In this document: positions 10,758 through 45,695 of the stretch, in pieces | How the letters are laid out: each line of letters opens with the position of its first letter | How positions within the stretch are numbered: position 1 is the stretch's first letter | DNA from: Candidatus Methylomirabilota bacterium | Lineage (GTDB): Bacteria > Methylomirabilota > Methylomirabilia > Rokubacteriales > CSP1-6 | Assembly: GCA_035635755.1 (NCBI GenBank) | Contig: DASQAK010000052.1 | Span: 6,236-70,235, forward strand | Length of the DNA stretch: 64,000 bases | Direction: 5' to 3' | Notes under the pieces: model-generated | Told to the model about the DNA's origin: nothing | The model's input: only the letters and a program-made list of their open reading frames with translations | Databases searched by the model: none | Made by a program: the position numbers and the translations under genes

Positions 10758-14010
<3,253 letters not shown>

Positions 14011-14019
14011 GGCCGGCTC

Positions 14020-19025: not shown

Positions 19026-19807
19026 GCCGCGGCCACCTCGCGCACCGTCACGTAGCCCCCGGAGGGCGCGCCGACCTGGAGGCGCTCCAGCCAGCGGATC
19101 CCTCCCCGCACGATGTCGCGGTCGTGGAACGCGCGCACCCGGCGGTCGTCGACGAGCACGAGCCCGTCGGCGGGAGCCCACGCCTGGGCCCCCAGGCAGG
19201 AGACATAGCGCAGGCCCGCCGCCGCCGCGGCCGTCAAGGTCTTGCGCGAGAGCACGTTGCCGGGAGGGACGAGGGTCTCGACCTTGCGGCCGAGAAAGTC
19301 TTGAAGGATCTCCTGGGAGTTCCTGACGTGCTCGCGATGAACGGACTCCGGCAGCCAGTCGTAGAACTCGCGATGGTCGGCGCGATTGCCGGAGAACAGG
19401 CGAGGCCGGAACCGTCCGCGCTCCAGCACGCAGTGGGTGTAGCCATGGTTGGCGACCTCGAGGAGCCCCCGGTCCACGCCTGAGCGGACCACACGACTCG
19501 CCTCGGGGAACTTGCGCGGATACGGAGTGATCGAGCCGTCGTCCTCGACCCAGCCCGCGGTCACGCCGACGGTCAGGCGCGAGCCGTGACGCTCGAGCCA
19601 GTCGAGGACGGCTTCCCAGTCACGCCCGCCGAGCTCGCGATAAGGCCCCCACCGCTTGATGGGCGGCAGGTACTTGAAGAAGAGGAGGTTGCCGGGAAAC
19701 AGCACCCGCAGCCCGCCCAGCTCGAGCCGGGTGATCCCGTACACCTCGTTCCGCTTGGAGGCGGCACCGACGTCGTCCATGCGCAGCGCCATCGCCGGCC
19801 CGGTCAC
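19022..19807 (-). CDS. polysaccharide deacetylase-like (CE4/NodB-homology) protein
   Basis: CE4-like motifs 'RMDDVGA' (Asp-Asp), 'NHGYTH' (His-X3-His), 'LVPPGN'. Assignment tentative. Confidence 0.5.
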
Positions 19808-20640
19808 TTGCGGGCCAGGAGCTCGATGTGGGGCCCGACGCCGAAGAGCCGGTAGTAGGCCCGCACGAGCGGCCATAGCGGGCTGCCCGTCTCGGGCAGT
19901 CGCGCGTCGGCGGGCTCGAGCCTCGTCACCTGCCGGGCGCCCGCTTCCCGCACGAGCGACTCGAGGCGCCGCGGCAGGAGCGGGGTCAGCGTGTCCACGA
20001 AGCCCGTGGGACGCCCGCGCGCCCGGAGATACCAGCGCGCGAGCGCCTTCGGCATGCGCGGCACCCAGAAGAGCTTGTAGTGCCCCTCGTAGCACGCGAG
20101 CGCGCTCGGAGCGTGGACGTACACGGCCCCGCCCGGGCGCGCGACCCGAAGCATCTCGCGCACGGTGGCGGGCACGCTCTCGACGTGCTCGAGCGTCGAG
20201 AAGCAGTACACGACGTCGAAGCACGCGTCGGGGAACGGCAGGGCCTCGGCGGCGCCGAGGAGGCAGATCGGCCCGCCCTTCTCGGCGTCGGCTTTGAGCC
20301 GGCATATCTCGACGGCGGCCGGCTCGGCGTCGATTCCGACGGCGCTCGCGCCGGCGCGCTGGGCGACCATGGTGAAGCCTCCGGTGCCGCAGCCCACGTT
20401 GAGGAGCCGGAGACCCGCCACCCTCCGTCCGATCGCCGATTCCAGCCGGGAGAGATGGCGGGTCTCGAGAGCTTCCTCTCCGAGTCGGACGGCCACGAGA
20501 TCCTGCCAACCGGGCACGCCCAGGGTGTCCCGATAGTAGCGGGTGTAGTACTCGGCGAGCCGCCGTCGCACCGCCTCCGGCCAGGCCTCGACGTCTCCCG
20601 CTCCTCGCGCCACCGTCACGGCGGGCGCTCCCGCCTTCAC
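19804..20640 (-). CDS. class I SAM-dependent methyltransferase
   Basis: 'LLNVGCGTGGF', 'ARPGGAVYVHAP'. GTG start overlapping stop of upstream DegT gene. Confidence 0.75.
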   Translation of the reverse strand: MKAGAPAVTVARGAGDVEAWPEAVRRRLAEYYTRYYRDTLGVPGWQDLVAVRLGEEALETRHLSRLESAIGRRVAGLRLLNVGCGTGGFTMVAQRAGASAVGIDAEPAAVEICRLKADAEKGGPICLLGAAEALPFPDACFDVVYCFSTLEHVESVPATVREMLRVARPGGAVYVHAPSALACYEGHYKLFWVPRMPKALARWYLRARGRPTGFVDTLTPLLPRRLESLVREAGARQVTRLEPADARLPETGSPLWPLVRAYYRLFGVGPHIELLARK

Positions 20641-21803: not shown

Positions 21804-22786
21804 CGCGACCCCGCTTCCGATTCGTGGCGCAGGCGATACCAGGCGAAGGTCTCGCGCACGCCCGCCTCGAGGGAGACCTTGGCCACGAAGCCCGTGAGCT
21901 CGCGAAGGCGCCCGATGTCGGGACAGCGCCGGGCGACCGACCCCGCGGGCGCGGCCACCCGCTCGAGCCTCGGCGCGAATCCCGCCTCTCTCAGCACGAG
22001 GCTCGCCAGATCCTCTATCCGCGTCTCCTCCGTGTCGTTGCCGATGTTCACGACCCGGCCCGAGGCCGCCGGTGTGGCCATGAGCCTGACCATGGCCTCC
22101 ACGGCGTCCGAGACGTGGCAGAAGGCGCGGCGCTGATCGGTGCCGTAGACGCGGAAGGGGTCCTCGCGGCGGAGCGCGCGGAGCGACAGCTCCGGGATGA
22201 CATGATCGGCGCCCATGCGCGGCCCGTACACGTTGTGGAAGCGCCCGATGACGGACGGGAGCGCGCGGGCGCGGGCGGTGTGGATCACCGCCGCTTCCCC
22301 CAGGATCTTGCTCGCCGCGTAGGCGAAGCGAGGCGCGGCCACGTCGGGCACGGACAGCGGCACGTCCTCGGGGGTGGGCACCGCCACCGTGCCCGCCGAC
22401 ACGCCGCCCGCATAGGTCTCGCTCGTCGAGGCGAAGAAGAGCATGCCGGCCTCGGGCGTGAGCCAATCGAGCAGGCGCATGAGGGCGAGCGTGTTGGTGC
22501 GGATCACCCGCGCGGGGTCGGTCTCGACGTTGCGCACGCCGACCACGGCCGCCAGCATGTAGACGGAGTCCCACCGCGCGGGCAGCTCCCGGAGCGCGTC
22601 CTCGCGGGTGAGGTCGGCCTGGACCAGGGTCACGCTCGGCCGCCCGCAGAGGGCTTCGATCTCTCCGTCCCGTCGGCCGCGTGAGAAGTCGTCGACCAGG
22701 GTGAGGGCGTGGCCCTCGGCGGCGAGGCGCGCGGCCAGGTGGTAGCCGATGAACCCCGCTCCGCCCAGGATCAGCGTCCTAGCCAT
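21800..22786 (-). CDS. NAD-dependent epimerase/dehydratase (extended SDR)
   Basis: 328 aa; 'LILGGAGFIGYHL', 'YAASKILGE' (YxxxK). Confidence 0.8.
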   Translation of the reverse strand: MARTLILGGAGFIGYHLAARLAAEGHALTLVDDFSRGRRDGEIEALCGRPSVTLVQADLTREDALRELPARWDSVYMLAAVVGVRNVETDPARVIRTNTLALMRLLDWLTPEAGMLFFASTSETYAGGVSAGTVAVPTPEDVPLSVPDVAAPRFAYAASKILGEAAVIHTARARALPSVIGRFHNVYGPRMGADHVIPELSLRALRREDPFRVYGTDQRRAFCHVSDAVEAMVRLMATPAASGRVVNIGNDTEETRIEDLASLVLREAGFAPRLERVAAPAGSVARRCPDIGRLRELTGFVAKVSLEAGVRETFAWYRLRHESEAGSR

Positions 22787-24071
22787 AGCCGATCCCCGCG
22801 TAGCGCACGCCCGCCCCGCGGACGGTCTCCTCGTCGAGGATGCGCCAGGCGTCGTAGAGGACGGCGGACCGGCGCAGGCGCGGCAGGAGCCGGCCTAGGT
22901 CGAGCTTGGCGTACTCGGGATGGTTGGTGACCACGAGCACCGCGTCCGCGCCGTCGAAGGCCGCCTCCGCCGTGACCGGCTCGGCACCGAGGCCGCGGAT
23001 GATGTCCGCTCCCACCAGGTAGTCGTGACCGCGAAGAGAGAGCCCGGCCGCGCGGAAGAGGGGGAGCATGGGCACGATGGGCGCGCCGCGCATGTCGTCC
23101 GTGGGCGGCCAGCCCTTGTAGGCCCAGCCGAGCACGGAGAGCCGCGCGCCCTCCGCGCTTCCGCGCGCGGACCGGATCATGGCCACGAGCCGCTCGGCGA
23201 CGTGGCCCGGCAGGTGCTCGTTGAGCCCGCGCGCCTGCCCGACCAGCCATGGCGTGTAGCCCGTCGCCCGCGAGGCGCTGATCAAGATGTACGGATCCTT
23301 GGACAGGCACGCCCCGCCCACGAAGCCGGGCTTGGCGAGGTCGGGGCGCGGATAGTCGACATTGGAGGCCCGGATGACTTCGAGCGGATCGAGCCCCCAC
23401 CGCTCGGCCACGAGGGCGATCTCGTTGCCGTAGGAGTAGATCAGGTCCGTGTGGCAATTGTTCGCGAGCTTGACCAGCTCCGCCGCCTCGAGCGAGGAGA
23501 CGGAGACCACGCGGCGGGTCACCCGCTCGAAGAGCTTGGCGGCCGCGCGCCCGCTCTCGGGATCGAGGCCGCCCACCACCTGCGGAAGCTCCTCGAGCTC
23601 GCGCAGCGCCTGTCCCTGGATGGTCCGCTCGGGCGCGAAGGCCAGCCTCGCGTGTCCCCAGGCCGAGAGCAGCTCGGGCAGGACCACGGCGCGGCTCCCT
23701 CCCACGGGCACCGTGCTGCGCACGATCACGAGCGTGTCGGGGGCGCAGCGCTCCGCCACGTGGCGCGCGGCGGCCCGCAGATTGCCGAGCTCGGGCCCGC
23801 GCGTCTCCGGATTGACCGGCGTGGAGACGCAGATGATGGCGGCCTCGACCCCGCGGGCGGGCAAGACGGAGGCGACGTGGAGACGATCGCCCAGAAACGT
23901 GCCGAGTCCCTCGTCGAGCCCGGGCTCGTAGAGGTGCGGCCGGCCCTGGGCGAGCGCGTCGAGCACGGCGGGCGAGGTGTCCACGCCGTGCACGATGAAG
24001 CCCTTGCGCGCAAGCGTCACCGCCAGCGTGAGCCCCACGTAGCCCAGCCCCACCACCCCGACCGTAGTCAT
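22779..24071 (-). CDS. nucleotide-sugar dehydrogenase (UDP-glucose/GDP-mannose dehydrogenase family; WbpA/WecC-like)
   Basis: 430 aa; N-terminal 'VGVVGLGYVGL', catalytic-Cys motif 'GFVGGACLSKD'. Confidence 0.85.
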   Translation of the reverse strand: MTTVGVVGLGYVGLTLAVTLARKGFIVHGVDTSPAVLDALAQGRPHLYEPGLDEGLGTFLGDRLHVASVLPARGVEAAIICVSTPVNPETRGPELGNLRAAARHVAERCAPDTLVIVRSTVPVGGSRAVVLPELLSAWGHARLAFAPERTIQGQALRELEELPQVVGGLDPESGRAAAKLFERVTRRVVSVSSLEAAELVKLANNCHTDLIYSYGNEIALVAERWGLDPLEVIRASNVDYPRPDLAKPGFVGGACLSKDPYILISASRATGYTPWLVGQARGLNEHLPGHVAERLVAMIRSARGSAEGARLSVLGWAYKGWPPTDDMRGAPIVPMLPLFRAAGLSLRGHDYLVGADIIRGLGAEPVTAEAAFDGADAVLVVTNHPEYAKLDLGRLLPRLRRSAVLYDAWRILDEETVRGAGVRYAGIGYG

Positions 24072-25199: not shown

Positions 25200-25700
25200 C
25201 TAACCCCCTGGGCCGAGCCGCCAGAGCTTCTTGATCGCCCTGAACGGTAAGGAGACGAGCCGGCCCTTGAAGGTCAGCACGAAGCGGCCGTCCACCCCGA
25301 CGATATACCCCGCCCAGGCTAGGGTCTCGAGACGCCCGGCCAGGGTCTCTTGCACCGGATAGCGACGCCGGATCTGCTCCCGGGAGAGGCCGTGAGGCGC
25401 CGCGCGGACCTCGATCACGAGCTGGACGGACTGAGAGGCCGCCAAGGTGTAGTAGAAGGGCATGTAGAGCAAGAAGCTGCACGCGACCACGACCATTCCG
25501 TAGACCGCGCGCCACCGGTCGACGTCGAGGAGCAAGCACGTCCACAGGGTGGCGACGGCGGCAAGCGCGAACAGCAGCGTCACGGTGCGAGCCCTGTGCT
25601 CGACCCGCGCGAAATGAAAGATCGCAAAGTGCACGACCACGGCCGCCGCGGTCCACGCCGCGCCCGCGCCGAACGCCGTGCCGAGCGCGTCGGGATTCAC
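25200..25700 (-). CDS. hypothetical small membrane protein (paralogue A)
   Basis: ~166 aa from GTG overlapping upstream stop. Hydrophobic N-terminal half, soluble C-terminal domain. Confidence 0.4.
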   Translation of the reverse strand: MNPDALGTAFGAGAAWTAAAVVVHFAIFHFARVEHRARTVTLLFALAAVATLWTCLLLDVDRWRAVYGMVVVACSFLLYMPFYYTLAASQSVQLVIEVRAAPHGLSREQIRRRYPVQETLAGRLETLAWAGYIVGVDGRFVLTFKGRLVSLPFRAIKKLWRLGPGG

Positions 25701-26236
25701 TGCGGCGTCTCGATCTGAAGGAAGGCGCGGAGTCCGCCGAACAGGCGCGCGGCGCGCGCGCCCTTGGGGGTGGCCAGGAGGCAGCCGGCGCGCTCCACCA
25801 TCAAGCGGGTGGAGAGGAGCCCGTCGATCCGCTTGTCGAGCATCCACCCCATGCCGAGCCCGCCGCCGTAGGCGGCTTCTTCCTCCTCAGGCGAGAGCGC
25901 GCGTCCGGGAGATTCGTCGATGTCGACCAGAATACGAAGCGAGAACCCTCGCTCGGCCAGGTTGTAGACCTGCAGCCATCCCCCGAAGAAGAGCGTGGCG
26001 TGGACGAAGAGGCCGAAAGCGCCGCACAGGAAGCTGCGTGGCTCGACGAGCCACTCGGGCAGGAGCCAGAGATCGGCCGGCGTCAGGGCGTAGGCCGCGA
26101 CGTAGAGCGGGATCGTGGCCAGGAAGATCCCCAGCATCGCGGCGGCCCGGCGGCGGACATCGACGATGCGGAAGACAACGGTGACGGCGGCCACGCAGAG
26201 CAGCGAGCTGGCGGCGGCGAGGAGAAGACCCTTCAC
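25697..26236 (-). CDS. hypothetical small membrane protein (paralogue B)
   Basis: 179 aa; four predicted TM helices plus a C-terminal soluble domain. Confidence 0.45.
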   Translation of the reverse strand: MKGLLLAAASSLLCVAAVTVVFRIVDVRRRAAAMLGIFLATIPLYVAAYALTPADLWLLPEWLVEPRSFLCGAFGLFVHATLFFGGWLQVYNLAERGFSLRILVDIDESPGRALSPEEEEAAYGGGLGMGWMLDKRIDGLLSTRLMVERAGCLLATPKGARAARLFGGLRAFLQIETPQ

Positions 26237-26248
26237 CCCCGGCGCGTC

Positions 26249-26923
26249 CTACGCCTGCTCGCTCCACTTGCGGAAGTCCCCGAGGAACTGGTCCACCGCC
26301 TCCGTCGTCTTCGGGTGCTGGGTGAGCGCCGGAAAGAACTTCGGCGGCACCGTGACGATATGGGCGCCGGCGCCGAGCGCCTCGTTGACGTCGGCGATGT
26401 GACGGATGCTGCCCACGATGATCTCCGACCGGATGCCGCCCTCGCGGAAAGCCCGCGCCGTCTGCTCCACGACGGACCGGGCGTCGTAACCGATGTCCTT
26501 GATGCGACCGTAGAAGAGGCTCACGAAGTTGGCCCCCGCCAGCGCCGCCATGTACGCCTGATTGAAGGACATGCAGCAGGTGCAGTTGACCATGATGTCG
26601 CGCTTGCGGAGCTCGGCCACGACCTTGAGCTCCCCCCAGCCTATGGGCACCTTGACGCTGAGCATGGGATAGCGGAAAGCCGAGACGAACTTGAGCGCCT
26701 GATCGAGCATCTCCGCGGGATCGTCCACGAACACCTCGACGGACAGCGGCACCTCGCGCCCGTGGCGGCGGATCAGCCCGATGATCTTGTGGATGTGCTC
26801 CGTGAAGTCGGTCCGCTCCTCCTTCGCCAGGATCGAAGGGTTGGTGGTGATGCCCGCCACGAAGCCGCGCGCGAGCGACTCCTCGATCTCCGCCAGGTTC
26901 GCCGAGTCCACGAAGAGCTTCAT
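26249..26923 (-). CDS. transaldolase / fructose-6-phosphate aldolase family protein (Tal/FsaA-type)
   Basis: 'MKLFVDSANLAEI...GITTNPSIL' signature. Strong RBS GGAGAG. ATGA overlap with gmhB stop. Confidence 0.8.
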   Translation of the reverse strand: MKLFVDSANLAEIEESLARGFVAGITTNPSILAKEERTDFTEHIHKIIGLIRRHGREVPLSVEVFVDDPAEMLDQALKFVSAFRYPMLSVKVPIGWGELKVVAELRKRDIMVNCTCCMSFNQAYMAALAGANFVSLFYGRIKDIGYDARSVVEQTARAFREGGIRSEIIVGSIRHIADVNEALGAGAHIVTVPPKFFPALTQHPKTTEAVDQFLGDFRKWSEQA

Positions 26924-27453
26924 GACTCTCCTCTCGTGAGGGTCAGGATGGTCGCGACGGCCTCGCGCAGGTCGGCCGCGCGGTGGTCCGGCCGCGCCGG
27001 ACCTTCCTCGCGCCCCGCCACCAGGATGGTCACGCACTCCGCCGCTCGTCCGGCGTCCACGTCCCGGTACCGGTCCCCTATCATGAAGGAGCGCGCGACG
27101 TCCACTCCCCATTCGCGCGCGGCCTGGAGGAGGAGCCCCGGCTTCGGCTTGCGGCAGCTGCAGCGATCCGCATCCCGATGGGGACAGACGTAGACCGCGT
27201 CCACGCCGGTCTCGCGACGCAGTCGCTCGTGCATGGCTTCGAGGATGGGCACCGACAGCTCACCCGTCGCCAGCTCGGGCTGGTTCGTGACCACGAGCGA
27301 GAGCAGGCCGATCGCGCGCAGACGGGCCACGCTGTCGGCTGCCCACGGATAGATCTCGAAGGTCTCGAGCCCGAGCGGCGCTCCCCAGCGACCGCCGCGC
27401 TCGACCATGGGATTGAGCACTCCGTCACGGTCGAGAAACACGGCGCGTTTCAT
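26920..27453 (-). CDS. gmhB: D,D-heptose 1,7-bisphosphate phosphatase (HAD-IIIA)
   Basis: From 'MKRAVFLDRDGVLN'. 'VVTNQ' and 'GDRYRD' HAD motifs. Confidence 0.75.
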   Translation of the reverse strand: MKRAVFLDRDGVLNPMVERGGRWGAPLGLETFEIYPWAADSVARLRAIGLLSLVVTNQPELATGELSVPILEAMHERLRRETGVDAVYVCPHRDADRCSCRKPKPGLLLQAAREWGVDVARSFMIGDRYRDVDAGRAAECVTILVAGREEGPARPDHRAADLREAVATILTLTRGES

Positions 27454-28067
27454 CGCCGCGCGAGACCCTCGCCGCCCGCGATGCGCTCGGCCAGGCAGAA
27501 CGCGATCAGGTGATGCAGCACGACGTGGAAACCCTCCACGTGGGGGGTCGTCTCGTACGGCACCACCACGCAGACGTCGCACACCTCACGCATGGCGCCC
27601 CCGTCGAAGCCGGCAAGCCCTATGGTGGTGCCTCCGCGCTCTTTCACGTACGCGATGGCCTTCATGAGGTTCTGGGACCATGCGCCGGCCTTGTCGCGAC
27701 CCGTGCCGCCGTGCACGCTGATGGTCACCAGGACATCCCCCGGCCGATAAAAGGTCGCGAGCTGCTCCGTATAGACATTGTCCCAGCCATCGTCGTTCAC
27801 GAGCGCGCTCACGAGCGGGATATTGTCGACGAGACTCATGGCGCGCAGCCGTGCTCGTCCCGGAATGGACGTCATCTTGTTCAGATCGGCGGCCAAATGC
27901 GTGGCCGTGCCGGCGGAGCCGCCATTGCCCGCCGTGAAGACCGTGCGCCCGTCCCTCCAGGCCTGGTACAGCGCCTCGATCGCCCGGTCGATGTCCTCGC
28001 GGGAGACCTTCCGGGCGATCTCCTCCACACCCTGAAGGAACCGATCGATATAGGCGCCGTTCTTCAC
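27450..28067 (-). CDS. gmhA: phosphoheptose isomerase (SIS domain)
   Basis: ~205 aa from GTG overlapping upstream stop; 'TAGNGGSAGTATHLAADL' SIS motif. Confidence 0.75.
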   Translation of the reverse strand: MKNGAYIDRFLQGVEEIARKVSREDIDRAIEALYQAWRDGRTVFTAGNGGSAGTATHLAADLNKMTSIPGRARLRAMSLVDNIPLVSALVNDDGWDNVYTEQLATFYRPGDVLVTISVHGGTGRDKAGAWSQNLMKAIAYVKERGGTTIGLAGFDGGAMREVCDVCVVVPYETTPHVEGFHVVLHHLIAFCLAERIAGGEGLARR

Positions 28068-28930
28068 GAGAGCCGCTCCTTCAGGCTCCCGTCCGGCAGA
28101 TGGACCGGATTGATTCGCCGCATGGTATAGACCTCCGAGCCGGTGATCTCGTCGAGGTGCGCGCGGAAACGCTCGCTCCGCCACGGATCGAACCCCGCCG
28201 CTATGGTCTTGCCCGTCAGCCCGTCAGCCTCGGGCGAGAGCAGGAACTCGACGCAGGCCACCGGCACCTCCATGGGCACGCCCCCTCGGGCCATGGCCGC
28301 CTCGGTGCGCTCGAAATGCTCGCGCCCCGCCCGGTCAGGTCCGGCGCGCAGCGTCGCCTCATGGATCTCGGTGGCGACCATGCCGGGCGCGACCGCATTG
28401 ACCGCTATGCCCCGGCTCTTGAGCTCTTCGGCCAGGCATTCCGTCAGGCGCACGAGGGCGGCCTTGGACGTAGCATACGCGCTGTAGCGCGGAAACGTGC
28501 CGAATGCGCCGCCCCCCGAGAAGGTGATGATGCGCGAGCGCTCGCCTCGCTCGAGAAGCGGGAGGGCGTGCTTGATCAGGAGATAGGCGCCGAAGACATT
28601 GTCCCGCAGGGTGGACCACCAGGCGTCGCTGTCTGTCTTCTCCACGGGTCCGATGGCCCCGAAGGCGCCGGCGCAGAAGACGACGGCGTCGAGAGCTGGG
28701 ACCTCGGCGGCCACCCACCCGACCAGCGCGCGCACTTGGCTCTCGTCGCCGACGTCGCAGGCGCGGGAGCGCGCCAATGTGTCGCCCTCCGTGACGGCGC
28801 TGAGCGCGGCGACGCGGCGCGCGCAGGCGAAGACCGTGTCTCCACGCGCGGCAAGCGCCCGCACCAGAGCCGCGCCGATTCCGGCGCTGGCCCCCGCGAT
28901 GAGGATCCGGCGGCCCGTCACTACGTCCAT
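28064..28930 (-). CDS. SDR-family oxidoreductase
   Basis: 'ILIAGASAGIGAAL', 'YATSKAAL' (YxxxK). Confidence 0.75.
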   Translation of the reverse strand: MDVVTGRRILIAGASAGIGAALVRALAARGDTVFACARRVAALSAVTEGDTLARSRACDVGDESQVRALVGWVAAEVPALDAVVFCAGAFGAIGPVEKTDSDAWWSTLRDNVFGAYLLIKHALPLLERGERSRIITFSGGGAFGTFPRYSAYATSKAALVRLTECLAEELKSRGIAVNAVAPGMVATEIHEATLRAGPDRAGREHFERTEAAMARGGVPMEVPVACVEFLLSPEADGLTGKTIAAGFDPWRSERFRAHLDEITGSEVYTMRRINPVHLPDGSLKERLS

Positions 28931-30225
28931 GGCGACTCGCCGATGGTTACTCGCGTGAGACCCGCCCGTCGGCAGCGCGCGCCGTCCAGCACTCCGGCCG
29001 CGTCCACCACCACGAATGATCGCAGCCGCTCCTTGAGAGCGGACGGGTCCACCGTGGCGAACTCGTCCCAGTCGGTGAGAATGACGAGGGCATCGGCGCC
29101 CTCGGTCGCCTGGAGGGCGCTCGACGCCATCAGGACGTCCGCGGTGGGCGGGAGCGTCACCTGCGGGTCATATGCGGTGACGACGGCGCGGCCGGCCAGA
29201 TCTCGCAGGAGCCTCAGGCTGATGGCGTTCTTGGTCGACCGGCTGTTCTTCTTGTACGCGAGCCCCCACAGGGCGATGCGCGGCCGCATCCCGGCGCGGA
29301 GGACGTGGCGATCGACGGCCCGCGTGAGCCACGCGTAGCGCGCGGCGCTCCGCTCGAGGATGAGAGCCGGAAGCCCTGCGTCTGTGCCATGGCTCGCCGC
29401 AAGCTCGCGCAGTTGGACGAGGTCACGCTCGAGATTGCCGCCCGCCAGCCCCAGTCCCGGACGGATATAGGCGTGGGGACCGATCCGTCGATCGCTCCGG
29501 AGCGCAGGCAGCATGGCCGTCATGCTCGCCCCCGTCACCTCGCAGAGATCCGCCAGGGCATTGGCATAGGTCACGGAGGCGGCGAGGTAGAAGTTGATGG
29601 CCGCCTTGCAGAGCTCCGCGCTCTCGTAGTTCATGCGGATGGCGGGGCAGCCGAATCGGGCCACGAGGGCGTCGAGGGTGGGCTCGGGCGCATGGTCGGT
29701 CTCGGGCCCGCCCAGCCAATCGGGCCCGCCCAGAATGATGCGCTCGGGCCTGAGATAGCGCGCGACGGCCTCACCGATGACGAGCGTCTCGACCCAGTAG
29801 TAGAGGCGCGACCGCAGATCGGGCCGCTTCTCGCGGAGACGCCCGGCGAGCGTCCGCGTATAGCCAACGGGTACCTGGCTCATGAGGGCGACCACCCCAT
29901 CGGCGGGCAGCCATGGCAGGGCCTGGTCGACATGGCGCTCGAGCTCCGACAGGTCGGCCCGGTTCTCGTCGTCGGTGACGGTGTCCAGCGCGACAATGAT
30001 CGTCTCTGCTCCCTCGAGGGCGCCGAAATCACCGCTGAACGTGGGTGGCGTGCGAGCCAGAAGGTCCGTGAGACCGGGTTCATCGACGGGCAGCGTCCCA
30101 CTGGCGAGCGCCGTGGCCCGCGCGGTGTCGCCGACCGCCATCACCTCGAAGCCCATGGACGAAAGACAGGCGCTCGTCACGAGGCCAAGGTGAGAGAGAC
30201 CGACGACACCGATCCGCTCCGTCAC
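28921..30225 (-). CDS. UDP-glucose/GDP-mannose dehydrogenase-family protein lacking the catalytic cysteine
   Basis: N-terminus 'IGVVGLSHLGL...EPGLTDLL' matches the family. The position of the canonical 'GGxCxxKD' motif reads 'GLAGGNLERD' (no Cys, Lys to Arg). GTGA overlap with upstream stop. Confidence 0.7.
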   Translation of the reverse strand: MTERIGVVGLSHLGLVTSACLSSMGFEVMAVGDTARATALASGTLPVDEPGLTDLLARTPPTFSGDFGALEGAETIIVALDTVTDDENRADLSELERHVDQALPWLPADGVVALMSQVPVGYTRTLAGRLREKRPDLRSRLYYWVETLVIGEAVARYLRPERIILGGPDWLGGPETDHAPEPTLDALVARFGCPAIRMNYESAELCKAAINFYLAASVTYANALADLCEVTGASMTAMLPALRSDRRIGPHAYIRPGLGLAGGNLERDLVQLRELAASHGTDAGLPALILERSAARYAWLTRAVDRHVLRAGMRPRIALWGLAYKKNSRSTKNAISLRLLRDLAGRAVVTAYDPQVTLPPTADVLMASSALQATEGADALVILTDWDEFATVDPSALKERLRSFVVVDAAGVLDGARCRRAGLTRVTIGESPWT

Positions 30226-31148
30226 GGCCCGCTCTTCGCCGAGGCCTGAGCGAGGAGGGAGCGGATCGCCTCCGCGATGCGCCAGTCGTTCTCGAGCGAG
30301 CTCTCTCCCGCTCGCGCGCGCCGCTCGAACTCGTCGAGGTCCGCCTCCCAGGTGACATCGCCCGCCGGCTGTTCCTCGCGCCGCTCCTCCGGAACACCGC
30401 TCGGCAGCACCCGCGTGCGACGCAGCAGGGTAACCCCGCCCCACTTGCCCAGGCCATCCAGGTGCAGCGAGCCCGCGCTCCCGAACACCTCCACCCGGAA
30501 CGTGTTCTTCCAGAAGACATTGCCGACCTCGAGGAAGACCCGGCGATCGACGGAGGTGAAGACCCCGTAGTCGAAGGTGCCCGACTCGACCGGCCGCAGG
30601 TCCAGGAGGGCGTAGCGCTCGCGCTCGTGGCCCAGGAGATAGCCGCAGAGGTCGAGGAGGTGGCAGCCGAGGTCCTCCAGGACCCCGCCGCCGGATTCGC
30701 GCCAGGTGCCGAGCCACTCGCGCACGGTGCCATTGCCGTAGAGCATGCGCACGCGGTCGAGCTTGCCCACGGCGCCCGCGTCGAGCAGCTGCTTGAGCCG
30801 CATGATCGAAGGCTCGAAGCGGTGATTGTACGAGGTATACCAGACGGCGCCGCTGCGCGCGCGGGCCGCGAGTGCCTCCGCTTGGTCGCGGCTCGAGAAG
30901 AGGAGCGGCTTTTCCACCAGGACCGGCTTGCCTTCCGCGAGGAAGCGGCCGACATAGTCGACCTTGGTGGGATTCGGGGTGGCCACGATCACCGCGTCGT
31001 ACGCGTCGGGGTCGACCTCGTCCACCGCCCGCACGGTGGCCCCGGGCGCCACTGGATCCACCGTGGCGGCGCAGCGCGCCCCCAGAAGACGCGCGCGGCG
31101 CCTGCCGATGTTGCCGAGGCCGACGACGAGATAGCGGAGAACGCCCAC
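30222..31148 (-). CDS. Gfo/Idh/MocA-family oxidoreductase
   Basis: 308 aa; 'LRYLVVGLGNIGRR', 'EKPLL' motif. Confidence 0.8.
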   Translation of the reverse strand: MGVLRYLVVGLGNIGRRRARLLGARCAATVDPVAPGATVRAVDEVDPDAYDAVIVATPNPTKVDYVGRFLAEGKPVLVEKPLLFSSRDQAEALAARARSGAVWYTSYNHRFEPSIMRLKQLLDAGAVGKLDRVRMLYGNGTVREWLGTWRESGGGVLEDLGCHLLDLCGYLLGHERERYALLDLRPVESGTFDYGVFTSVDRRVFLEVGNVFWKNTFRVEVFGSAGSLHLDGLGKWGGVTLLRRTRVLPSGVPEERREEQPAGDVTWEADLDEFERRARAGESSLENDWRIAEAIRSLLAQASAKSGP

Positions 31149-31155
31149 CGTCGGC

Positions 31156-32691
31156 TCAGGCCCCGGCCGCGGCCCGCTTGAGGGCGTCGAGCTTGTCCTC
31201 GACCTCGGCGATGACGACCGGCACGTTGCCCGGGCGCTCGCAGGCCACGGCGGCGGCGAGACTGCCGAGGATGCTGGCGATGACGATGCTGCCCGACTGC
31301 GCCAGGGCCAGGGTGGCCATGGCCAGCAGCGCGTCGCCGGCGCCGATAGGGTCGACGAGATTGCCGACGAAGCTGTCCACGATGAAGAACTCGCGGGGCA
31401 TCCGGCCCGGGCTGCGATAGGTCAGAATGCCGCGCTCACCAAGCTTCAAGATCAGGTAGCGGCAGCCTGCGCGCTGGAAGAGGGTCTGCGCCATCGGGCG
31501 CACGCCCGAGTCCTGGTCTCCGAGGCCGAAGCGCGCCTCGCGCTCGTTCGGCGTGATGAGATCGAATCCCTGAAAGTCCAGGATATTGCCCCAGCGGTTC
31601 GACACCTGACTGTCGGCCGCGCGGAGCACGCCCGGTCGCACCGCCGCCGCGTATTCCTCGATCGTCGAGCGATGGAAGATCCCGTGCCGGAAGTCGCTGA
31701 AGATGACGACGTCCGCCGGGTTTCCCTGAATGGCGTCGACGATCTCGCGCCGCAGCCGGTCGGACACGATGTGGTTGTCGACCCGGTCGACCTGGAGCAT
31801 CCGATGATGATCGGCGATGAACCGCTCCTTGAGGGTCGTGGGCCGGCTGGCGTCGACGAGGGCCCGCGTCGCCACCCCGGTGGCGGCCAAGTCGTCGACC
31901 ACGAAGGCCCGCAGCTCGTCGTCGCCCAGGACGGTCGTAAACGACACCTGGGCTCCCACGCTGTGGACGTGCTTGGCCACCACGGCGGCGCCGCCCACGA
32001 AGGTGTCGGCGTGCTCGAACCTGAGGCTGAAGCTCGGGGACTTGGCGCTCTGGCCGAGGAGCGAGCAGTACGAGTAGCGGTCCACGATGGTGTCGCCCAC
32101 GACGTGCGCGCGGACGCGGCCGAGATCGTGAAGGGTCGCCCGGAGCTGATCGAAGGTGACGCCCTCCGACTGCAGCAGCGTGATGAGCTTGTCGACGGTG
32201 AGCCGGGGCTCGTGCTGGGTGATGATCGTGCTCGACGAGTAGACGACGTCGCCGGGCGTGAACACCATCTCGCCGCCGTACGCCTCGAGCGCGCCGACCT
32301 CCTCCTGCGTCTTGGGCGGCAGCGGACTCGTCTGATACTCGAAGCCCTTGGCGAAGAAGTCGGGCTGGACGATCCGGATGCTCTCGATCGGAGTCTCGTT
32401 GGGGTCGATGACAACATAGTCCACGAACTCGAGCGCGGCCAGGTTGGCCGCGCGGAGCTCCTGCGGCACGTAAGGGCGGTAGGCGCCCTTGGAGATGTGG
32501 GCATCGGCCGTCACGCTGGCGATGAGGACGTCCGCCTTCTCCTTGGCGTACATGAGATGGCGCAGGTGACCGGGATGGACGATGTCGAAGGTGCCGTGAC
32601 ACATGATGGCCGTGCGCTTCCGAGGACGAGGGCCCAGGAGGGTCGCCAGCTCCTCGCGGGTCTTGATCTTGTGGGCGAACTTTTCGTACAT
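31156..32691 (-). CDS. bifunctional sugar-1-phosphate nucleotidyltransferase / PfkB-family sugar kinase (HldE/RfaE-like with reversed domain order)
   Basis: Start at 'MYEKFAHK' (GGAG RBS). N-terminal cytidylyltransferase domain 'IMCHGTFDIVHPGHLRHL' (HxGH). C-terminal PfkB kinase with 'DPIGAGDALLA'. Confidence 0.75.
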   Translation of the reverse strand: MYEKFAHKIKTREELATLLGPRPRKRTAIMCHGTFDIVHPGHLRHLMYAKEKADVLIASVTADAHISKGAYRPYVPQELRAANLAALEFVDYVVIDPNETPIESIRIVQPDFFAKGFEYQTSPLPPKTQEEVGALEAYGGEMVFTPGDVVYSSSTIITQHEPRLTVDKLITLLQSEGVTFDQLRATLHDLGRVRAHVVGDTIVDRYSYCSLLGQSAKSPSFSLRFEHADTFVGGAAVVAKHVHSVGAQVSFTTVLGDDELRAFVVDDLAATGVATRALVDASRPTTLKERFIADHHRMLQVDRVDNHIVSDRLRREIVDAIQGNPADVVIFSDFRHGIFHRSTIEEYAAAVRPGVLRAADSQVSNRWGNILDFQGFDLITPNEREARFGLGDQDSGVRPMAQTLFQRAGCRYLILKLGERGILTYRSPGRMPREFFIVDSFVGNLVDPIGAGDALLAMATLALAQSGSIVIASILGSLAAAVACERPGNVPVVIAEVEDKLDALKRAAAGA

Positions 32692-32701
32692 GACGCTCCG
32701 G

Positions 32702-33694
32702 CTAGCCCAGGTACTTGAACCAGTCCCGCGTGGCCTGGGCAATGGTGTCCACCGTCCACACGGGCGCCGCGCGCCAGTCGTCGATATGGTCGAGCATGAT
32801 CTTGACGCCCTCCTCGAAGCTCACCGTGGGCTCCCAGCCCGTCGCGCGTCGGATCTTCGAGATGTCGGCATGCGTGCGGTCGGGCTCCCCTGGCCGCTTC
32901 GGAACATGCACCGTGGGCCCGCCCAGGAGCTCTACCAGGCGATTGACGCTCTGGGGTGCGCCCGCGCCCACGTTGAACACCTCGCCGGCCGAGCGCGATT
33001 GCGCCGCGAGGAGATTGGCCCGCGCCACGTCGGTGACGAAGACGAAGTCGCGGGTCTGCGTGCCGTCACCCACTATCGTGAAGGGATGACCATTGAGCTT
33101 CTGAGCAAGAAAAACACCGAACACCGCCCCGTAGGTGCCTGACGTTCGCGAGCGGGGACCATAGGCATTGAAATACCGGAGCGACACGACGGGGAGGCGG
33201 TAGACCTGCCCCCAGTGGAGGGCCATGGTCTCGCCCAGATACTTGCTGAGGGCATACGGATATTCAGTACGGATCGGCGCCGTCTCCGGCGTGGGATGGA
33301 CATCCGAGATGCCATAGCATGACGACGAGGCGGAATAGATGAACCGCTCCACGCCGGCCGTCCTCGCCGCCTCGAGCGCCCCCAGCGTGCCCATGACGTT
33401 GGCGCGCAGGTAGCGCTCGGGGTGTTCGATCGACGGCACGATATCCGCAAGAGCCGCGAAGTGGAAGACCCAGGCCGCCCCCGCGAACTCCGAGGCCATG
33501 CGCGCGCCGTCGCAGACGTCTGCCGCGACCACCTTGAGCTGGGGGGAGCCGCGATGGTGGGCGAGGTTGTCGGGACGGCCCGTGCTGAAATCATCCACCG
33601 CCACCACGTCGTGGCCTTCCGCGAGCAGGAGGTCGACCATGTGGCTCCCGATGAAGCCGCCCCCGCCCGTGACCACGCTCCGGCGACGCGCCAA
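32702..33694 (-). CDS. NAD-dependent epimerase/dehydratase (extended SDR)
   Basis: '[12 protein letters not shown]', 'YALSKYLGE', 'RYFNAYGPR'. Confidence 0.8.
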
Positions 33695-33747: not shown

Positions 33748-34746
33748 CTAGCGCAACCCGGCCGCCTGGATGGCCTTGACGTTGTAGTACTCGATGGCGC
33801 CGACGGGATCGGGCACCTTCCCCGCGGCGAAGGCCCGGCAGAGATCGCGGACGGCGTCCTCGATGGTGCGCTTGGGAACAAAGCCGAGCTCTCGCCGGAT
33901 CTTCTCCGAGGAGATGTGATACGAGCGCAGGTCATCGGACGGCGTGGTGACGATCTCCACCTCCTCGCGGCCCGGCACTTCCCGGCTGACCACGTCGCGT
34001 ACGATGGCGGCGATCTCGGCCACGGTGTGATTCTGGTAGCCGGCATTGAAGGTCTTGCCCGCGATGAGGCCATCGGGCACCTCGAGCAGCATGGCGTAGA
34101 GGTCGCACACATCGTCGATGTGGATGTTCGGCCGGCGCTGGCTCCCGCCGAAGACCGTGATCTTCCCGTTCACCAGGGCCGACATGGTCAGGATATTGAC
34201 GGTCAGATCGAGCCGCAGCCGCGGCGAATAGCCGCAGACGGTCGCGGGCCGGATCGTCACCGTCGTGAACCCGGGCGCTTGGTGCTTGAAGAGCAGCGGC
34301 TCGCACAGGCCCTTGTACTTGTTGTAGTCGGTGAGCGGCACCAGCGGGTGCTCTTCGGTGACGTTCTCCGCGTCGCTCACGCCGTACACGCTCGATGTCG
34401 AGGCGTAGATGAAGCGCCGCACTCCGGCCTCCAGGGCCGCCGTCACCATGGGCTCGAAGCACTCGAAGTTGATGGTGCGGCTCAGCCGGGGATCGAGCGC
34501 GAAGCTCGGATCGTTGGAGATGCAGGCGAGATGGATGACCGCCTCGTGCCCTGGAAGCACGCGCCGCAGGAGGGCTTCGTCGCGGATGTCGCCGGTGATC
34601 CGCCGGAGCCGGTCGGAGTCCGCAGGCAGATGATCGCCGAAGAGAAACAGGTCGAGCGCGGTCACGTCGTGCCCCGCCTCGAGAAGGCGCGGCACCAGCA
34701 CCGTGCCCACGTATCCCGCGCCGCCCGTGACGAAGACGCGGCTCAC
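33748..34746 (-). CDS. NAD-dependent epimerase/dehydratase (extended SDR)
   Basis: '[11 protein letters not shown]', 'YNKYKGLCE'. Confidence 0.8.
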
Positions 34747-35471
34747 AGCTGACCGACCGATGTGAGCATGCGACGTCTCGCCACCCGGAGCGCCCAGAAC
34801 GTGGTGATAACGGTCTTGGCCACACTCAAGAAGTTGCGCAGGCTCAGCGCCCGCGACCGCCGAGCGGCGGCCTCATCGATGGGGACACCCACCTCGACCA
34901 CCGACAGTCCCGCATCGATGGCCTTGAGCAGCGTCTCCGCCTGAAATCCAAACCCCCAGGTCGTGACGGGGCGGGTCAGCAAGAACTGACGCGGGTAAAC
35001 CGACAGGCCGTTGAAGTATCGCATCCGGAGGCCGAAGAGGGCGTTCAGGGTCGTGGTGTAGGCCGTCGATATGACACGCCTGAATCCCACCCGCACCTCG
35101 GGGTTCGTGGCGTACGAGGTGACCACATCGGCCTTCCCCATATGGCGCAGGATCTCGCCGATCGAGTCCTCCGGCCATGTGTTGTCTCCGGGAACGTAGA
35201 CAAAGTGAGACTTTCTCGCCTCGCGCACCCCGCGCGCATAGCTGTAACCGAGCCCCATGTTGCGCAGGTTCTCGACGACGCGAACCCGCGGCTGCGTCCT
35301 CGCGAGCCGCGTGGCCACGGCCCCCGTCCCGTCCGTGCTTCCGTCGTTCACGATGATGATCTCGAAGTCCTCGCACACGCCGGCCACGACGCGAATCAGC
35401 TGCCGTACCGTGGCCTCGAGATCCCGCTCCTCGTTCAGGGCCGGCACCAGGACCGAGAGCGAGTGGGCCAT
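34743..35471 (-). CDS. glycosyltransferase family 2 (polyprenyl-phosphate glycosyltransferase-like)
   Basis: 242 aa; 'LSVLVPALNEERDL...EIIIVNDGSTDGT'. Confidence 0.75.
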   Translation of the reverse strand: MAHSLSVLVPALNEERDLEATVRQLIRVVAGVCEDFEIIIVNDGSTDGTGAVATRLARTQPRVRVVENLRNMGLGYSYARGVREARKSHFVYVPGDNTWPEDSIGEILRHMGKADVVTSYATNPEVRVGFRRVISTAYTTTLNALFGLRMRYFNGLSVYPRQFLLTRPVTTWGFGFQAETLLKAIDAGLSVVEVGVPIDEAAARRSRALSLRNFLSVAKTVITTFWALRVARRRMLTSVGQL

Positions 35472-36505
35472 CAGTAGGGCCCCTGGAAAGCGGATACTTC
35501 CGGAGCGAATTCCGGAAGGATCGACACGTCGCGATCGAGGCTACGGAGACACTCCGCGGCAATGGTGTGGCGATCCGGGTAGAAGGCTCTCTCCAGCGGC
35601 ACCGAGACGGGAGCCGGACAGTCCGCGAGCCCTATGCGCCGGACGGGCGACTTGAGATGTCCCAGAGCGCTCTCGGCGCAGATCGCGGCCACCTCCGCCG
35701 ATAGGCCAAAGGCGAGCCAGCTCGTATCGGCGACAACGACGCGGCCCGTCTTTCTCACCGATCCGAGAATCGTCTCCGCATCGAGGGGACGGATGCTGCG
35801 GCAGTCCACGATCTCGAGACTGATGCCCAGTGGAGCGAGCAGATCGGCGGCGCGCATCGCTTCCACGAGCATCAGCGACACTGCGACCACTGTGAGGTCG
35901 CGGCCTTCCCTGACGATGGACGCCGTGCCGAGGGGCGTCGGCTCGGGAGCTTCCGGCACGGGCCCGCGCGTCTCGTAGAGCGCGCGGTGCTCCAGTATGA
36001 CGACGGGCGCCCGCGCCTGGAGAGCGGCCAGGGTCAGGCCTTTGGCGTCCCGGGGTAGAGCGGGCATGACAACGTGGAGCCCGGGGAAATGCCCGAAGAG
36101 CGCCTGGAGGCTCTGGGAATGTGTCGCGCCCTGCCCCCATCCTTTCCCGACGATGGAACGGACGACTATCGGCACGCTCGACGCCCCACCGTACATGTAG
36201 CGCCACTTCGCCGCCAGGTTGATCATCTGGTCCGTCGCGAGAAACATGAAATCATTGCGCGCGTGCACGACGACGGGACGCTTGCCCATGGCCGCGGCCC
36301 CTATCGCGACCCCCGTGAGGGCCTGTTCGGCTATGGGCACGTCGAAGACTCTGGCCCGGCCGAATTTTTCGTAGGCGGGGCGGGTCGTTCCAAAGATCCC
36401 CTTGTGATCATCGACGCCGATTCCCATGATGAACACATCCGGATCCTGCGCCATTCCCTGAACGAGGGCCTCGGCGATTGCCTCCGCGTATGTGCGCGTG
36501 CGCAT
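35471..36505 (-). CDS. ThDP-dependent 2-oxoacid dehydrogenase E1 component, beta subunit (transketolase-like)
   Basis: 344 aa; 'FIMGIGV', 'RVFDVPIAEQALTGVAIGAA', C-terminal TK_C-like domain. Confidence 0.85.
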   Translation of the reverse strand: MRTRTYAEAIAEALVQGMAQDPDVFIMGIGVDDHKGIFGTTRPAYEKFGRARVFDVPIAEQALTGVAIGAAAMGKRPVVVHARNDFMFLATDQMINLAAKWRYMYGGASSVPIVVRSIVGKGWGQGATHSQSLQALFGHFPGLHVVMPALPRDAKGLTLAALQARAPVVILEHRALYETRGPVPEAPEPTPLGTASIVREGRDLTVVAVSLMLVEAMRAADLLAPLGISLEIVDCRSIRPLDAETILGSVRKTGRVVVADTSWLAFGLSAEVAAICAESALGHLKSPVRRIGLADCPAPVSVPLERAFYPDRHTIAAECLRSLDRDVSILPEFAPEVSAFQGPY

Positions 36506-36516
36506 GATCGCTTCCG

Positions 36517-37557
36517 CTAGTATACGTTCTTGAGGAGATCGCGCGGATCGGGCCAGGGCGCCTGCTTGGCCTCCGCCACCGCCTTGGCGATCTCCTCGGC
36601 GATCTGCGACTCGAACTGTTGGAAGGTCGCGCTGCTCGCGAGCCCGCGTGCTTTCAGCGCCTTGGCGCTCCGCTTGACGGGATCCCTGCGCTTCCAGGAT
36701 TCGATCTCACGCGCGGTCCGATAGCCGCGCTCAGAGTCATCCAGGGGGCCGACGTGCTCGAGCCAACGATACGTCGCGCACTCGAGGAAGACCGGCCCCC
36801 GGCCCCCCCGGCACTGCGTCACCGCCCGCCGGGCGCTGCGGTACACCGCGTACACATCATTGCCGTCGAGCTCCTCCGCGGACATCTCGTACATCTGGGC
36901 GCGTCGGTAGATCTCGGTGCCTCGAGGGAGCCGGACAGACAGCGGCGAGTGCGTGGCATACAGGTTGTTCTCGCACACGAACACCACGGGCAGGCGCTTG
37001 ACAGCCGCCCAGTTCAAGCTCTCGTGAAAGACGCCTTCGTCAACCGCGCCATCGCCGAAGAACGTCACGGCGACCCGCGAGGATCCGTCCATCTGGAACG
37101 CGAGCGCGGATCCCACGGCGACGGGGATTGTCTGAGCGAGGATGGCGGAGGCCGCCACCATTCCCACGGACATGTCGCTCAAGTGAACGGAGCCGCCTCG
37201 GCCGCGAGCCGCCCCACTCTCCCGCCCATAGAGCTCGGCCACGAGCGCCGCCAGATTGCCCCCCTTGGCCAGATAGTGCGCATGGCAGCGGTGTCCGCTG
37301 AAGACGACGTCGTCGGACCGGAGGGCGGCACACATTCCGACCGCCACCGCCTCTTGTCCGACGGAGAAGTGCGTCGGAGTACGCATTTCCTGCTCTTTGT
37401 AGAGCTCCGCCAGCTTCTCCTCCACGCGCCGCGCGCGCAGGAGCTCGAAGTGCAGGCGCAGGCTCGACTCAGCAGACAGCCCTCGAAGAGACGACCCGTC
37501 GACCCGGCGTGCAGCCCGGGCGGAGCGCCTGGCCCTCGGCCGCTTCTTCCCCGTCAT
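36517..37557 (-). CDS. ThDP-dependent 2-oxoacid dehydrogenase E1 component, alpha subunit
   Basis: 'RRVEEKLAELYKEQEMRTPTHFSVGQEAVAVG', 'GDGAVDEGVFHESLNWAA' (ThDP GDG motif). 30-aa basic N-terminal extension may not be translated. Confidence 0.8.
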   Translation of the reverse strand: MTGKKRPRARRSARAARRVDGSSLRGLSAESSLRLHFELLRARRVEEKLAELYKEQEMRTPTHFSVGQEAVAVGMCAALRSDDVVFSGHRCHAHYLAKGGNLAALVAELYGRESGAARGRGGSVHLSDMSVGMVAASAILAQTIPVAVGSALAFQMDGSSRVAVTFFGDGAVDEGVFHESLNWAAVKRLPVVFVCENNLYATHSPLSVRLPRGTEIYRRAQMYEMSAEELDGNDVYAVYRSARRAVTQCRGGRGPVFLECATYRWLEHVGPLDDSERGYRTAREIESWKRRDPVKRSAKALKARGLASSATFQQFESQIAEEIAKAVAEAKQAPWPDPRDLLKNVY

Positions 37558-44960: not shown

Positions 44961-44966
44961 GGCTCG

Positions 44967-45692: not shown

Positions 45693-45695
45693 CCG

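Follow-up and report, generated by a model that had tools for sequence, protein, structure and literature searches.

What does a protein do that is built like UDP-glucose dehydrogenase (UGDH) and lacks the catalytic cysteine of that enzyme? The question is raised by a locus of a Candidatus Methylomirabilota bacterium, within 64,000 nucleotides of contig DASQAK010000052.1 (assembly GCA_035635755.1; this whole stretch is called the window, and all coordinates refer to it). The open reading frame (ORF) at 28921..30225 on the minus strand encodes a 434-amino-acid member of the UDP-glucose/GDP-mannose dehydrogenase family, here called UGDH'. The original prediction for this ORF, made from the sequence, treated the protein as a single odd paralogue and left it three options: release of an aldehyde, a two-electron oxidation at another position of the substrate, or no catalysis at all. 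UGDH' does lack the cysteine, and it proved to be one member of a large branch that lacks it. It is probably a functional relative of UGDH with no uronic-acid role. We put at about one in two the probability that it is a side-chain oxidoreductase of the type of LmbL from lincomycin biosynthesis, carrying out an NAD-dependent two-electron oxidation on the side chain of a nucleoside-diphosphate (NDP)-heptose or NDP-octose together with a Gfo/Idh/MocA-family (Gfo) partner.

A predicted UGDH fold with a remodelled active site

The overall architecture of UGDH' is that of its canonical relatives. PF03721, PF00984 and PF03720 were all found above their Pfam gathering thresholds, with E-values of 1e-16 to 1e-19, and the AlphaFold2 (AF2) model, computed with 47 family members, had a pLDDT of 94. 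The N-terminal domain was modelled as an intact Rossmann fold with pLDDT >90. The best Foldseek neighbors of the model in the PDB were BceC, UgdG, and the human and C. elegans UGDH (TM 0.83-0.89, identity 22-28%), and the best PDB match by sequence was a canonical Ugd at 1e-44; the branch has no solved structure of its own. With human UGDH (hUGDH) and the bacterial Ugd, BceC and UgdG enzymes (PDB 2q3e, 2y0e, 4a7p) UGDH' shares the three-domain fold, at a TM of 0.87-0.89 for the best matches and an identity of only 23-28%, a similar length, and the FK/YK motif of the nucleotide-binding domain. The UGDH-like character of the NAD-binding and central regions, as originally predicted, is thus well supported by both the Pfam domains and the structural neighbors.

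The ORF is intact. Its G+C content at third codon positions (GC3) is 0.85, matching that of the neighboring genes in a window of 69% G+C. Long antisense ORFs at 28100..29338 and 29305..30249 on the plus strand, as well as others, combine a high GC1 or GC2 with a low GC3 and are artefacts of high G+C content, not genes.

The active site differs sharply from that of UGDH. In place of the motif GGxCxxKD, UGDH' has AGGNLERD (29422..29445, minus strand), and a HMMER alignment, at maximal posterior probability, set 'glglaggnlerd' of UGDH' against 'gpgyggscfpkd' of 4a7p, the UDP-glucose dehydrogenase of Sphingomonas. We also aligned the family with hUGDH using MAFFT; in the hUGDH sequence used, all residues numbered in the literature fell at the right positions. 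In the motif, C276 of hUGDH corresponds to N264, K279 to R267 and D280 to D268, so the missing Cys and the change of Lys to Arg that had been read from the translation stand. We looked for an aligned Cys a few residues away from Asn264, and neither alignment contained one. Cys206 and Cys193 were considered as alternative nucleophiles and rejected: the former is Ala, Thr or Ser in most relatives, and the latter is Ala, Ser or Gly in 14 of 95 representatives of the clade to which UGDH' belongs (clade A, below) and missing from the sister clade B. C228 is widely conserved and is also found in canonical enzymes; neither it nor C193 nor any other cysteine is invariant. A second UGDH-family protein of the same operon (22779..24071, minus strand) carries GGACLSKD, as had been noted, along with GLGYVG and STVPVG.

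The substitutions extend well beyond those listed in the original prediction, which had missed S11, H12, D81, Q117, I150 and A410. The dinucleotide-binding motif GxGYxG reads GLSHLG (30184..30201, minus strand), with G13 replaced by S11 and Y14 by H12; N90 is replaced by D81, T131 by Q117, E165 by I150, and R442 by A410. Retained are E161 (E146), K220 (K207), N224 (N211), R260 (R247), D280 and K339 (K325). In hUGDH, the six conserved active-site residues are Thr131, Glu161, Lys220, Asn224, Cys276 and Asp280, of which Cys276 is the nucleophile and Lys220 probably serves as the base in alcohol oxidation; access of the coenzyme is gated by Tyr14, Glu161 and Glu165, and Asp36 sets the specificity for NAD (PMC3129169). 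Judged by this alignment, UGDH' retains the residues of the first half-reaction, alcohol oxidation (Lys207, Asn211, Asp268 and Glu146), and the replaced residues (the equivalents of Cys276, Tyr14, Thr131 and Glu165) are those tied to the thiohemiacetal/thioester half of the reaction or to coenzyme cycling. This division suggests an oxidation by a single hydride transfer.

It was originally argued that UGDH' cannot perform the canonical four-electron oxidation. The conclusion is reasonable, but "cannot" is too absolute, since the C276A variant of hUGDH retains the conversion of UDP-Glc to UDP-GlcUA and forms 2 NADH for each product, albeit 1.8e4-fold more slowly (PMC3129169). UGDH' might therefore be a four-electron NDP-sugar 6-dehydrogenase that oxidizes the aldehyde hydrate without a covalent thiol intermediate, and JGI indeed labels members of the family 'UDPglucose 6-dehydrogenase'. 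We consider this very improbable. Apart from the low rate of C276A, the equivalents of Tyr14, Thr131 and Glu165 have been replaced together with the Cys, the same operon already holds a canonical Cys-containing paralogue, and the gene cassette described below offers no downstream use for a uronic acid. NCBI names one 90%-identity cluster member only 'UDP binding domain-containing protein'. The NCBIfam model TIGR03026 likewise scored UGDH' at 188.3 bits, below its cutoff of 189.8, compared to 283.5 for the paralogue; no NCBIfam model describes the Cys-less branch. Taken as a canonical dehydrogenase, then, UGDH' has the three-domain architecture and the Lys/Asn/Asp set that serves alcohol oxidation and oxyanion stabilization (K207, N211 and D268, invariant in the family). 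It lacks the catalytic Cys, the equivalents of Thr131, Tyr14 and Glu165, which in hUGDH control the active-site water and the coenzyme, and an intact GxGxxG, and it scores below the TIGR03026 cutoff.

A large and ancient branch without the catalytic cysteine

We examined how far these substitutions extend among relatives. GGN[LIV]ERD (GGH in 3) was present in 116 of the 120 nearest homologues, which reach down to 46% identity; the remaining 4 are fragments without the region, and none has the Cys. These proteins also carry GLSHLG, MSQVP and W[VA]ETL, and those with source names all come from Methylomirabilota metagenome-assembled genomes (MAGs). Among 80 metagenome loci, 78 encode GGN[LI]ERD and the other 2 are truncated. 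A search of 1.84 billion cluster representatives returned 1152 proteins at E<1e-30, of which the best 150 were examined; 132 of these, representing 50%-identity clusters, were full-length. Within this best 150 of 1152, the Cys was lacking in about 126 of the 132 full-length representatives, and only 2 had a canonical GGSC..KD.

The Cys-less proteins fall into two clades. Clade A, which includes UGDH', has 95 representatives with GLSHLG, MSQVP, VETL and GG(N/H)LERD, and clade B has 31 with GLWHLG, SSQVPVG, PENLRLG and GGTLARD. Compared with six canonical sequences, both share the changes Y to H12, G/N to D81, T to Q117, C to N/T264, K to R267 and F to Y324. H12, D81, Q117, N/T264 and R267 are near-invariant in both, with His12 present in 89/95 clade-A and 30/31 clade-B representatives. 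Both also keep G9, G14, E146, K207, N211 and D268, and about 85% of their members have the beta2 Asp. The distance between the SAE..K helix and the GG motif hardly varies, at 60 residues for 259 of 261 sequences. The best tblastn matches on plasmids (Kitasatospora, Streptomyces, Aeromonas) were canonical Cys enzymes in unrelated contexts and served only as canonical comparators. A literature search for 'Cys-less UGDH' returned nothing relevant.

As judged from these alignments, the new residues are under purifying selection, with conservation far beyond chance, and the branch is very large and ancient, with a coordinately remodelled active site. This is a strong argument against a degenerate or non-catalytic protein, the third of the original options, which is now strongly disfavored. 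One could suppose that UGDH' is a decaying, non-functional paralogue of the neighboring canonical dehydrogenase, as Pfam scores its domains lower than those of the paralogue and it has lost a key catalytic residue. However, the substituted residues are near-invariant in hundreds of sequences, which span at least five phyla; the ORF is unbroken and its codon bias normal, and both synteny and gene fusions (below) are conserved. The scarcity of canonical Cys proteins among the cluster representatives further indicates that UGDH' is not a recent copy of the paralogue. By the conservation of its sequence, decay is effectively refuted.

A conserved cassette of sugar-nucleotide genes

UGDH' sits in a long minus-strand operon in which overlapping starts and stops link the genes for the Gfo protein, UGDH', a short-chain dehydrogenase/reductase (SDR), a SIS-domain isomerase, a HAD phosphatase, and a transaldolase. 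The GTG start of UGDH' at 30225 shares the sequence GTGA with the TGA stop of the upstream gene for a Gfo/Idh/MocA oxidoreductase (30222..31148), the presumed partner. The TAG stop (28921-28923) lies inside the first codons of the downstream gene for a classical SDR (adh_short, 28064..28930), overlapping its ATG start region by 10 nt. A scan for promoters and terminators around the cassette yielded nothing meaningful.

Pfam assigned each of the further products to a family, and comparison with NCBIfam models showed how far they are from the known enzymes. Reading on from the SDR along the minus strand, the operon encodes a GmhA-like ketose-phosphate isomerase with a SIS_2 domain (27450..28067; TIGR00441 gmhA, 91 bits against a cutoff of 209), a GmhB-like sugar-bisphosphate phosphatase of the HAD-IIIA type (26920..27453; NF006506, 111 against 178), and an FSA/TalC-type transaldolase (TAL_FSA, 26249..26923; TIGR00875, 149 against 246). 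Upstream of the Gfo gene, on the same strand, are genes for a bifunctional HldE-like nucleotidyltransferase and PfkB kinase (31156..32691; NF008454, 159 against 521) and for two extended-SDR proteins, the NDP-sugar epimerase/dehydratase Epi1 (32702..33676), recognized by Pfam and NCBIfam, and a second epimerase/dehydratase, Epi2 (33748..34746). In the HldE-like protein the nucleotidyltransferase is N-terminal and the PfkB kinase C-terminal, the opposite of the order in E. coli HldE, and this order is kept in all clade-A cassettes. Because the supply proteins score far below the equivalog cutoffs for GmhA, HldE, GmhB and FSA, they are likely paralogues dedicated to something other than ADP-heptose.

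The same genes recur around other members of the branch. A Gfo homologue was found directly upstream of UGDH', on the same strand, in 55 of the 57 metagenome loci with enough sequence. Directly downstream, 68 of 70 loci had a HAD phosphatase (43), an adh_short SDR (21) or a SIS isomerase (4). In the 21 long loci, that is, those of the 80 with at least 6 kb on both sides, the Gfo, the HldE-like protein, both epimerases and the HAD phosphatase were present in 21/21, the SIS isomerase and the transaldolase in 19/21, and the adh_short SDR in 8/21. The arrangement of the window recurs in five loci (L001, L005, L006, L007 and L012), where the UGDH-like protein is 42-51% identical to UGDH'.

Clade-B proteins are encoded in a corresponding cassette. 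In a Terriglobia locus, genes for a transaldolase, epimerase, GHMP kinase, UGDH', adh_short, Gfo, SIS isomerase and HAD phosphatase lie within a Wza/Wzc/flippase exopolysaccharide locus. In the actinobacterium Jatrophihabitans (L010) the order is SIS, HAD, transaldolase, epimerase, GHMP kinase, Gfo, adh_short and UGDH', followed by a GT2 glycosyltransferase, a methyltransferase and an NTP_transferase. The components of the clade-B cassettes are 30-67% identical to those of the window, one for one, with the separate GHMP kinase standing in for the HldE-like protein. Two natural fusions were also found: Gfo/Idh/MocA::UGDH-like in clade A (P0130, 719 aa) and adh_short::UGDH-like in clade B (P0203, 723 aa).

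Taken together with the fit of the cassette scores to a dedicated pathway paralogous to the ADP-heptose route, the genomic context makes it highly probable that UGDH' is a functional enzyme, distinct from UGDH, of a dedicated NDP-heptose/octose pathway, in which it acts with the Gfo protein. Among the three original options, a two-electron dehydrogenase acting on another position fits this context best, with the amendment that the likely substrate is an NDP-heptose or NDP-octose rather than UDP-glucose.

A proposed side-chain oxidation and its alternatives

From the families present we propose the following route. The transaldolase would add a C3 unit to an aldose phosphate, and the GmhA-type isomerase would convert the resulting ketose phosphate to an aldose. 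Phosphorylation of C1 by the kinase and removal of the terminal phosphate by the GmhB-type phosphatase would then allow the nucleotidyltransferase to yield an NDP-sugar of 7 or 8 carbons. The epimerases, the Gfo/Idh/MocA protein, UGDH', and sometimes the SDR would tailor its exocyclic side chain. UGDH' would bind the NDP-sugar in the manner of UGDH and take one hydride from the carbon at the C6 position, giving a 6-ketone. The Gfo partner, with the SDR where present, might complete a net dehydration, deoxygenation or epimerization, or the ketone might be passed to an aminotransferase. When the sugar is a heptose or octose, the carbon that would lie at the C6 position of UGDH bears a secondary alcohol. 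A single hydride transfer then suffices to form a ketone, without the help of a thiol; this would explain why the Cys and the equivalents of Tyr14, Thr131 and Glu165 were lost jointly while Lys, Asn and Asp were kept.

A single oxidation could also take place at the primary alcohol that ends the chain, on C6 in a hexose, C7 in a heptose or C8 in an octose, with the aldehyde released to a DegT-family or E1-type thiamine-diphosphate (ThDP)-dependent enzyme. Without the Cys the aldehyde cannot be trapped, and genes for DegT, E1 alpha/beta or split transketolase recur nearby, in the window (20637-21803 and 35471-37557) and in L005, L006, L007 and L012. We nevertheless regard this as improbable: the DegT and E1 genes are outside the near-universal core, the DegT gene of the window adjoins nonulosonic-acid-type genes instead, and the transaldolase/GmhA-type chemistry places a secondary alcohol where UGDH enzymes oxidize. 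The variant first put forward, an enzyme that stops at the aldehyde of UDP-glucose, found no support.

Several observations weigh against an NAD-dependent oxidation of the side chain by UGDH'. Binding of NAD is not assured by the sequence, as Ser/Thr (clade A) or Trp (clade B) stands in place of the second Gly of GxGxxG. In UGDH' itself the beta2 Asp is displaced by one residue (D36 corresponds to G32, with Asp33 adjoining). A hydrophobic residue replaces the equivalent of Glu165, which orients the nicotinamide in hUGDH, and the 'GTP' loop of the cofactor pocket contains the invariant Asp81. The adh_short SDR, present in so few of the long clade-A loci, is not a core partner. And loss of the Cys by itself leaves slow four-electron chemistry possible, as hUGDH C276A shows (PMC3129169).

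The remodelled cofactor pocket in particular raises the question of whether UGDH' is a redox enzyme at all. It might have kept the UGDH fold and NDP-sugar binding and lost the use of NAD, serving as an acid/base catalyst (a dehydratase, enolase or isomerase) or as a subunit that presents the substrate, with the Gfo protein, and the SDR where present, performing all hydride transfers. The new invariant polar residues His12, Asp81, Gln117, Asn/Thr264 and Arg267 occupy positions that line the active site in UGDH, the pairing with Gfo appears obligate, with fusions to Gfo or SDR on record, and the cassette already contains two to four bona fide NAD(P) enzymes. On the other hand, the outer Rossmann glycines are conserved, most members of the family have the beta2 Asp that determines NAD specificity in hUGDH, the alcohol-oxidation set Lys207, Asn211 and Asp268 is invariant, and the N-terminal domain is confidently modelled as an intact Rossmann fold. 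We therefore think a non-redox role unlikely, though it is the most serious of the alternatives.

Comparison with the lincosamide and heptose pathways

The proposed assignment of UGDH' as a side-chain oxidoreductase draws on the resemblance of its cassette to lincosamide biosynthesis. There, lmbK encodes a phosphatase, lmbL a 'C8 dehydrogenase', lmbM an epimerase, lmbN an isomerase, lmbZ an oxidoreductase, lmbP a kinase, lmbO a guanylyltransferase and lmbR a transaldolase (PMC4351081 and S1), the last making octulose 8-phosphate from ribose 5-phosphate (PMC5854111). The epimerase LmbM, LmbL of the nucleotide-sugar-dehydrogenase family, the oxidoreductase CcbZ/LmbZ and the aminotransferase CcbS act on GDP-octose to yield GDP-lincosamide (PMC12945683). 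CcbL, a nucleotide sugar dehydrogenase, is 436 aa long (PMC4351081 S1), and the closest non-Lmb relatives of CcbK and CcbZ are in Acidobacteria (PMC4351081 and S1).

The enzyme set of the window appears to match the LmbR/N/P/K/O/M/L/Z set of the lincomycin GDP-octose pathway family by family, LmbL (ABX00608) being compared by description and gene context only. Both systems pair a UGDH-family protein of ~430 aa (LmbL/CcbL) with a Gfo/Idh/MocA protein (LmbZ/CcbZ), and both gene sets hold a transaldolase, a GmhA-like isomerase, a kinase, a GmhB-like phosphatase, a nucleotidyltransferase and an epimerase. Clade-B cassettes, for example that of Jatrophihabitans, have the version with a GHMP kinase and an NTP_transferase. 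In contrast to the antibiotic clusters, the cassette of the window lies in a surface-glycan locus, has the extra adh_short SDR, and has a core without an aminotransferase. The fused kinase/nucleotidyltransferase of HldE type further suggests that the carrier is probably ADP- or CDP-linked, not GDP-linked. Work by Wang and colleagues from 2020 is said to have found that LmbL and CcbZ together carry out a 6,8-dehydration.

LmbL itself was sought in two ways. A search for homologues of P0244, the most actinobacterial-looking of the clade-B proteins, listed neither LmbL nor any Streptomyces entry. The 22-nt reverse-transcription PCR primer L-rtR for lmbL (PMC7014725 Table S2) had a sole match in the genome contigs, an exact one at 6079..6100 of L004. 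It lies within a gene for an extracytoplasmic-function (ECF) sigma factor in a Terriglobia MAG and there codes for ELGNLKDR; we take this match to be coincidental, and Streptomyces lincolnensis was not matched in the scan of the genome collection. LGNLKD, encoded by the primer, was considered as an active-site motif and rejected, since it fits a helix of the C-terminal domain instead (cf. 'LIGDLKDRA' in P0029), and it is thus uninformative about the Cys position of LmbL.

The ADP-L-glycero-D-manno-heptose pathway (GmhA, HldE, GmhB, HldD) supplies its activated sugar with the same enzyme families. It differs in that the homologues in the window fall well short of the equivalog cutoffs, the two domains of HldE come in the opposite order, and the canonical route has no transaldolase, Gfo or UGDH-like gene. 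In HldD, C6 of the heptose can be transiently oxidized by NAD. A second parallel is with the NDP-hexose 4,6-dehydratases RmlB and Gmd, in which, as in our proposal, NAD oxidation beside the leaving-group carbon is followed by elimination and re-reduction. These are single extended-SDR enzymes with a Tyr/Lys pair, whereas in our proposal two proteins, one of UGDH fold and one of Gfo fold, would share the chemistry and direct it at the side chain.

More tentatively, the cassette could be a primary-metabolic route of wide distribution that makes an 8-carbon sugar nucleotide with a modified side chain, or an unusual heptose, for surface glycans, with the lincosamide pathway as a recruited offshoot and the UGDH-fold and Gfo-fold pair as an unrecognized two-component enzyme, either a side-chain dehydrogenase/dehydratase or a non-redox one. 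If so, Methylomirabilota, Acidobacteria, Chloroflexi, Actinobacteria and others would carry such a sugar on their surface glycans, and higher-carbon sugars, familiar until now chiefly from lincosamide antibiotics, may be frequent building blocks of the surface glycans of abundant, largely uncultured soil phyla; the cassette would also offer a possible evolutionary source for the lincomycin sugar pathway. A literature search on octoses in bacterial polysaccharides returned nothing relevant. A Cys-less UGDH homologue acting on another substrate would hardly startle specialists; what we believe deserves to be followed up is how large the branch is, that its Gfo partner appears obligate, and how widely the pathway would then be spread. 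Recognition of the branch and its invariant partners corrects a systematic mis-annotation, the label UDPglucose 6-dehydrogenase on proteins without the defining residue, defines a testable enzyme pair, and provides a natural experiment on which residues of UGDH serve which half-reaction.

Genes surrounding the cassette

Of the models compared with the canonical paralogue at 22779..24071, the closest are those of UDP-ManNAc dehydrogenases, whose cutoffs it misses by a wide margin. On its two sides are genes for a CBS-domain nucleotidyltransferase (24075-25124), an epimerase/dehydratase (21800-22786) and a DegT aminotransferase (20637-21803). Two small ORFs between this group and the cassette (166 and 179 aa; 25200..26236, minus strand) had no Pfam, NCBIfam or PDB match. 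Both have predicted N-terminal membrane helices and a short soluble C-terminal domain, and their homologues occur near the cassette in 7 and 12 of the 21 long loci, respectively.

Upstream of the cassette, a nonulosonic-acid-type gene set occupies 40185..49226 on the minus strand. It encodes a NeuC-like 2-epimerase (40185-41351), NeuB (41348-42397), a large putative glycosyltransferase (42394-44340), a PglD-like acetyltransferase (44337-44960), a CMP-sugar synthetase (CTP_transf_3, 44967-45692), a second Gfo/Idh/MocA protein (45696-46679), a B12-binding radical SAM enzyme (46676-48211) and a Maf/MptE-like protein (48213-49226). Genes of this type also flank the cassette in L001, L006 and L007, so the two modules may serve one glycan.

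Inside the sugar operon, at 35471..37557 (minus strand), there is also an E1 alpha/beta pair resembling the ThDP-dependent component of pyruvate dehydrogenase, and E1 or split-transketolase pairs lie beside the cassette in L005 and L012 as well. Such a pair hints at a two-carbon branch or a chain extension on a keto-sugar. Finally, the minus-strand run at 10041..20640 encodes at least 6 methyltransferases, GT4 and GT2 glycosyltransferases, a methyltransferase-GT2 fusion (10754-12247) and a polysaccharide deacetylase (19022-19807), and its richness in methyltransferases suggests that the glycan is heavily methylated.

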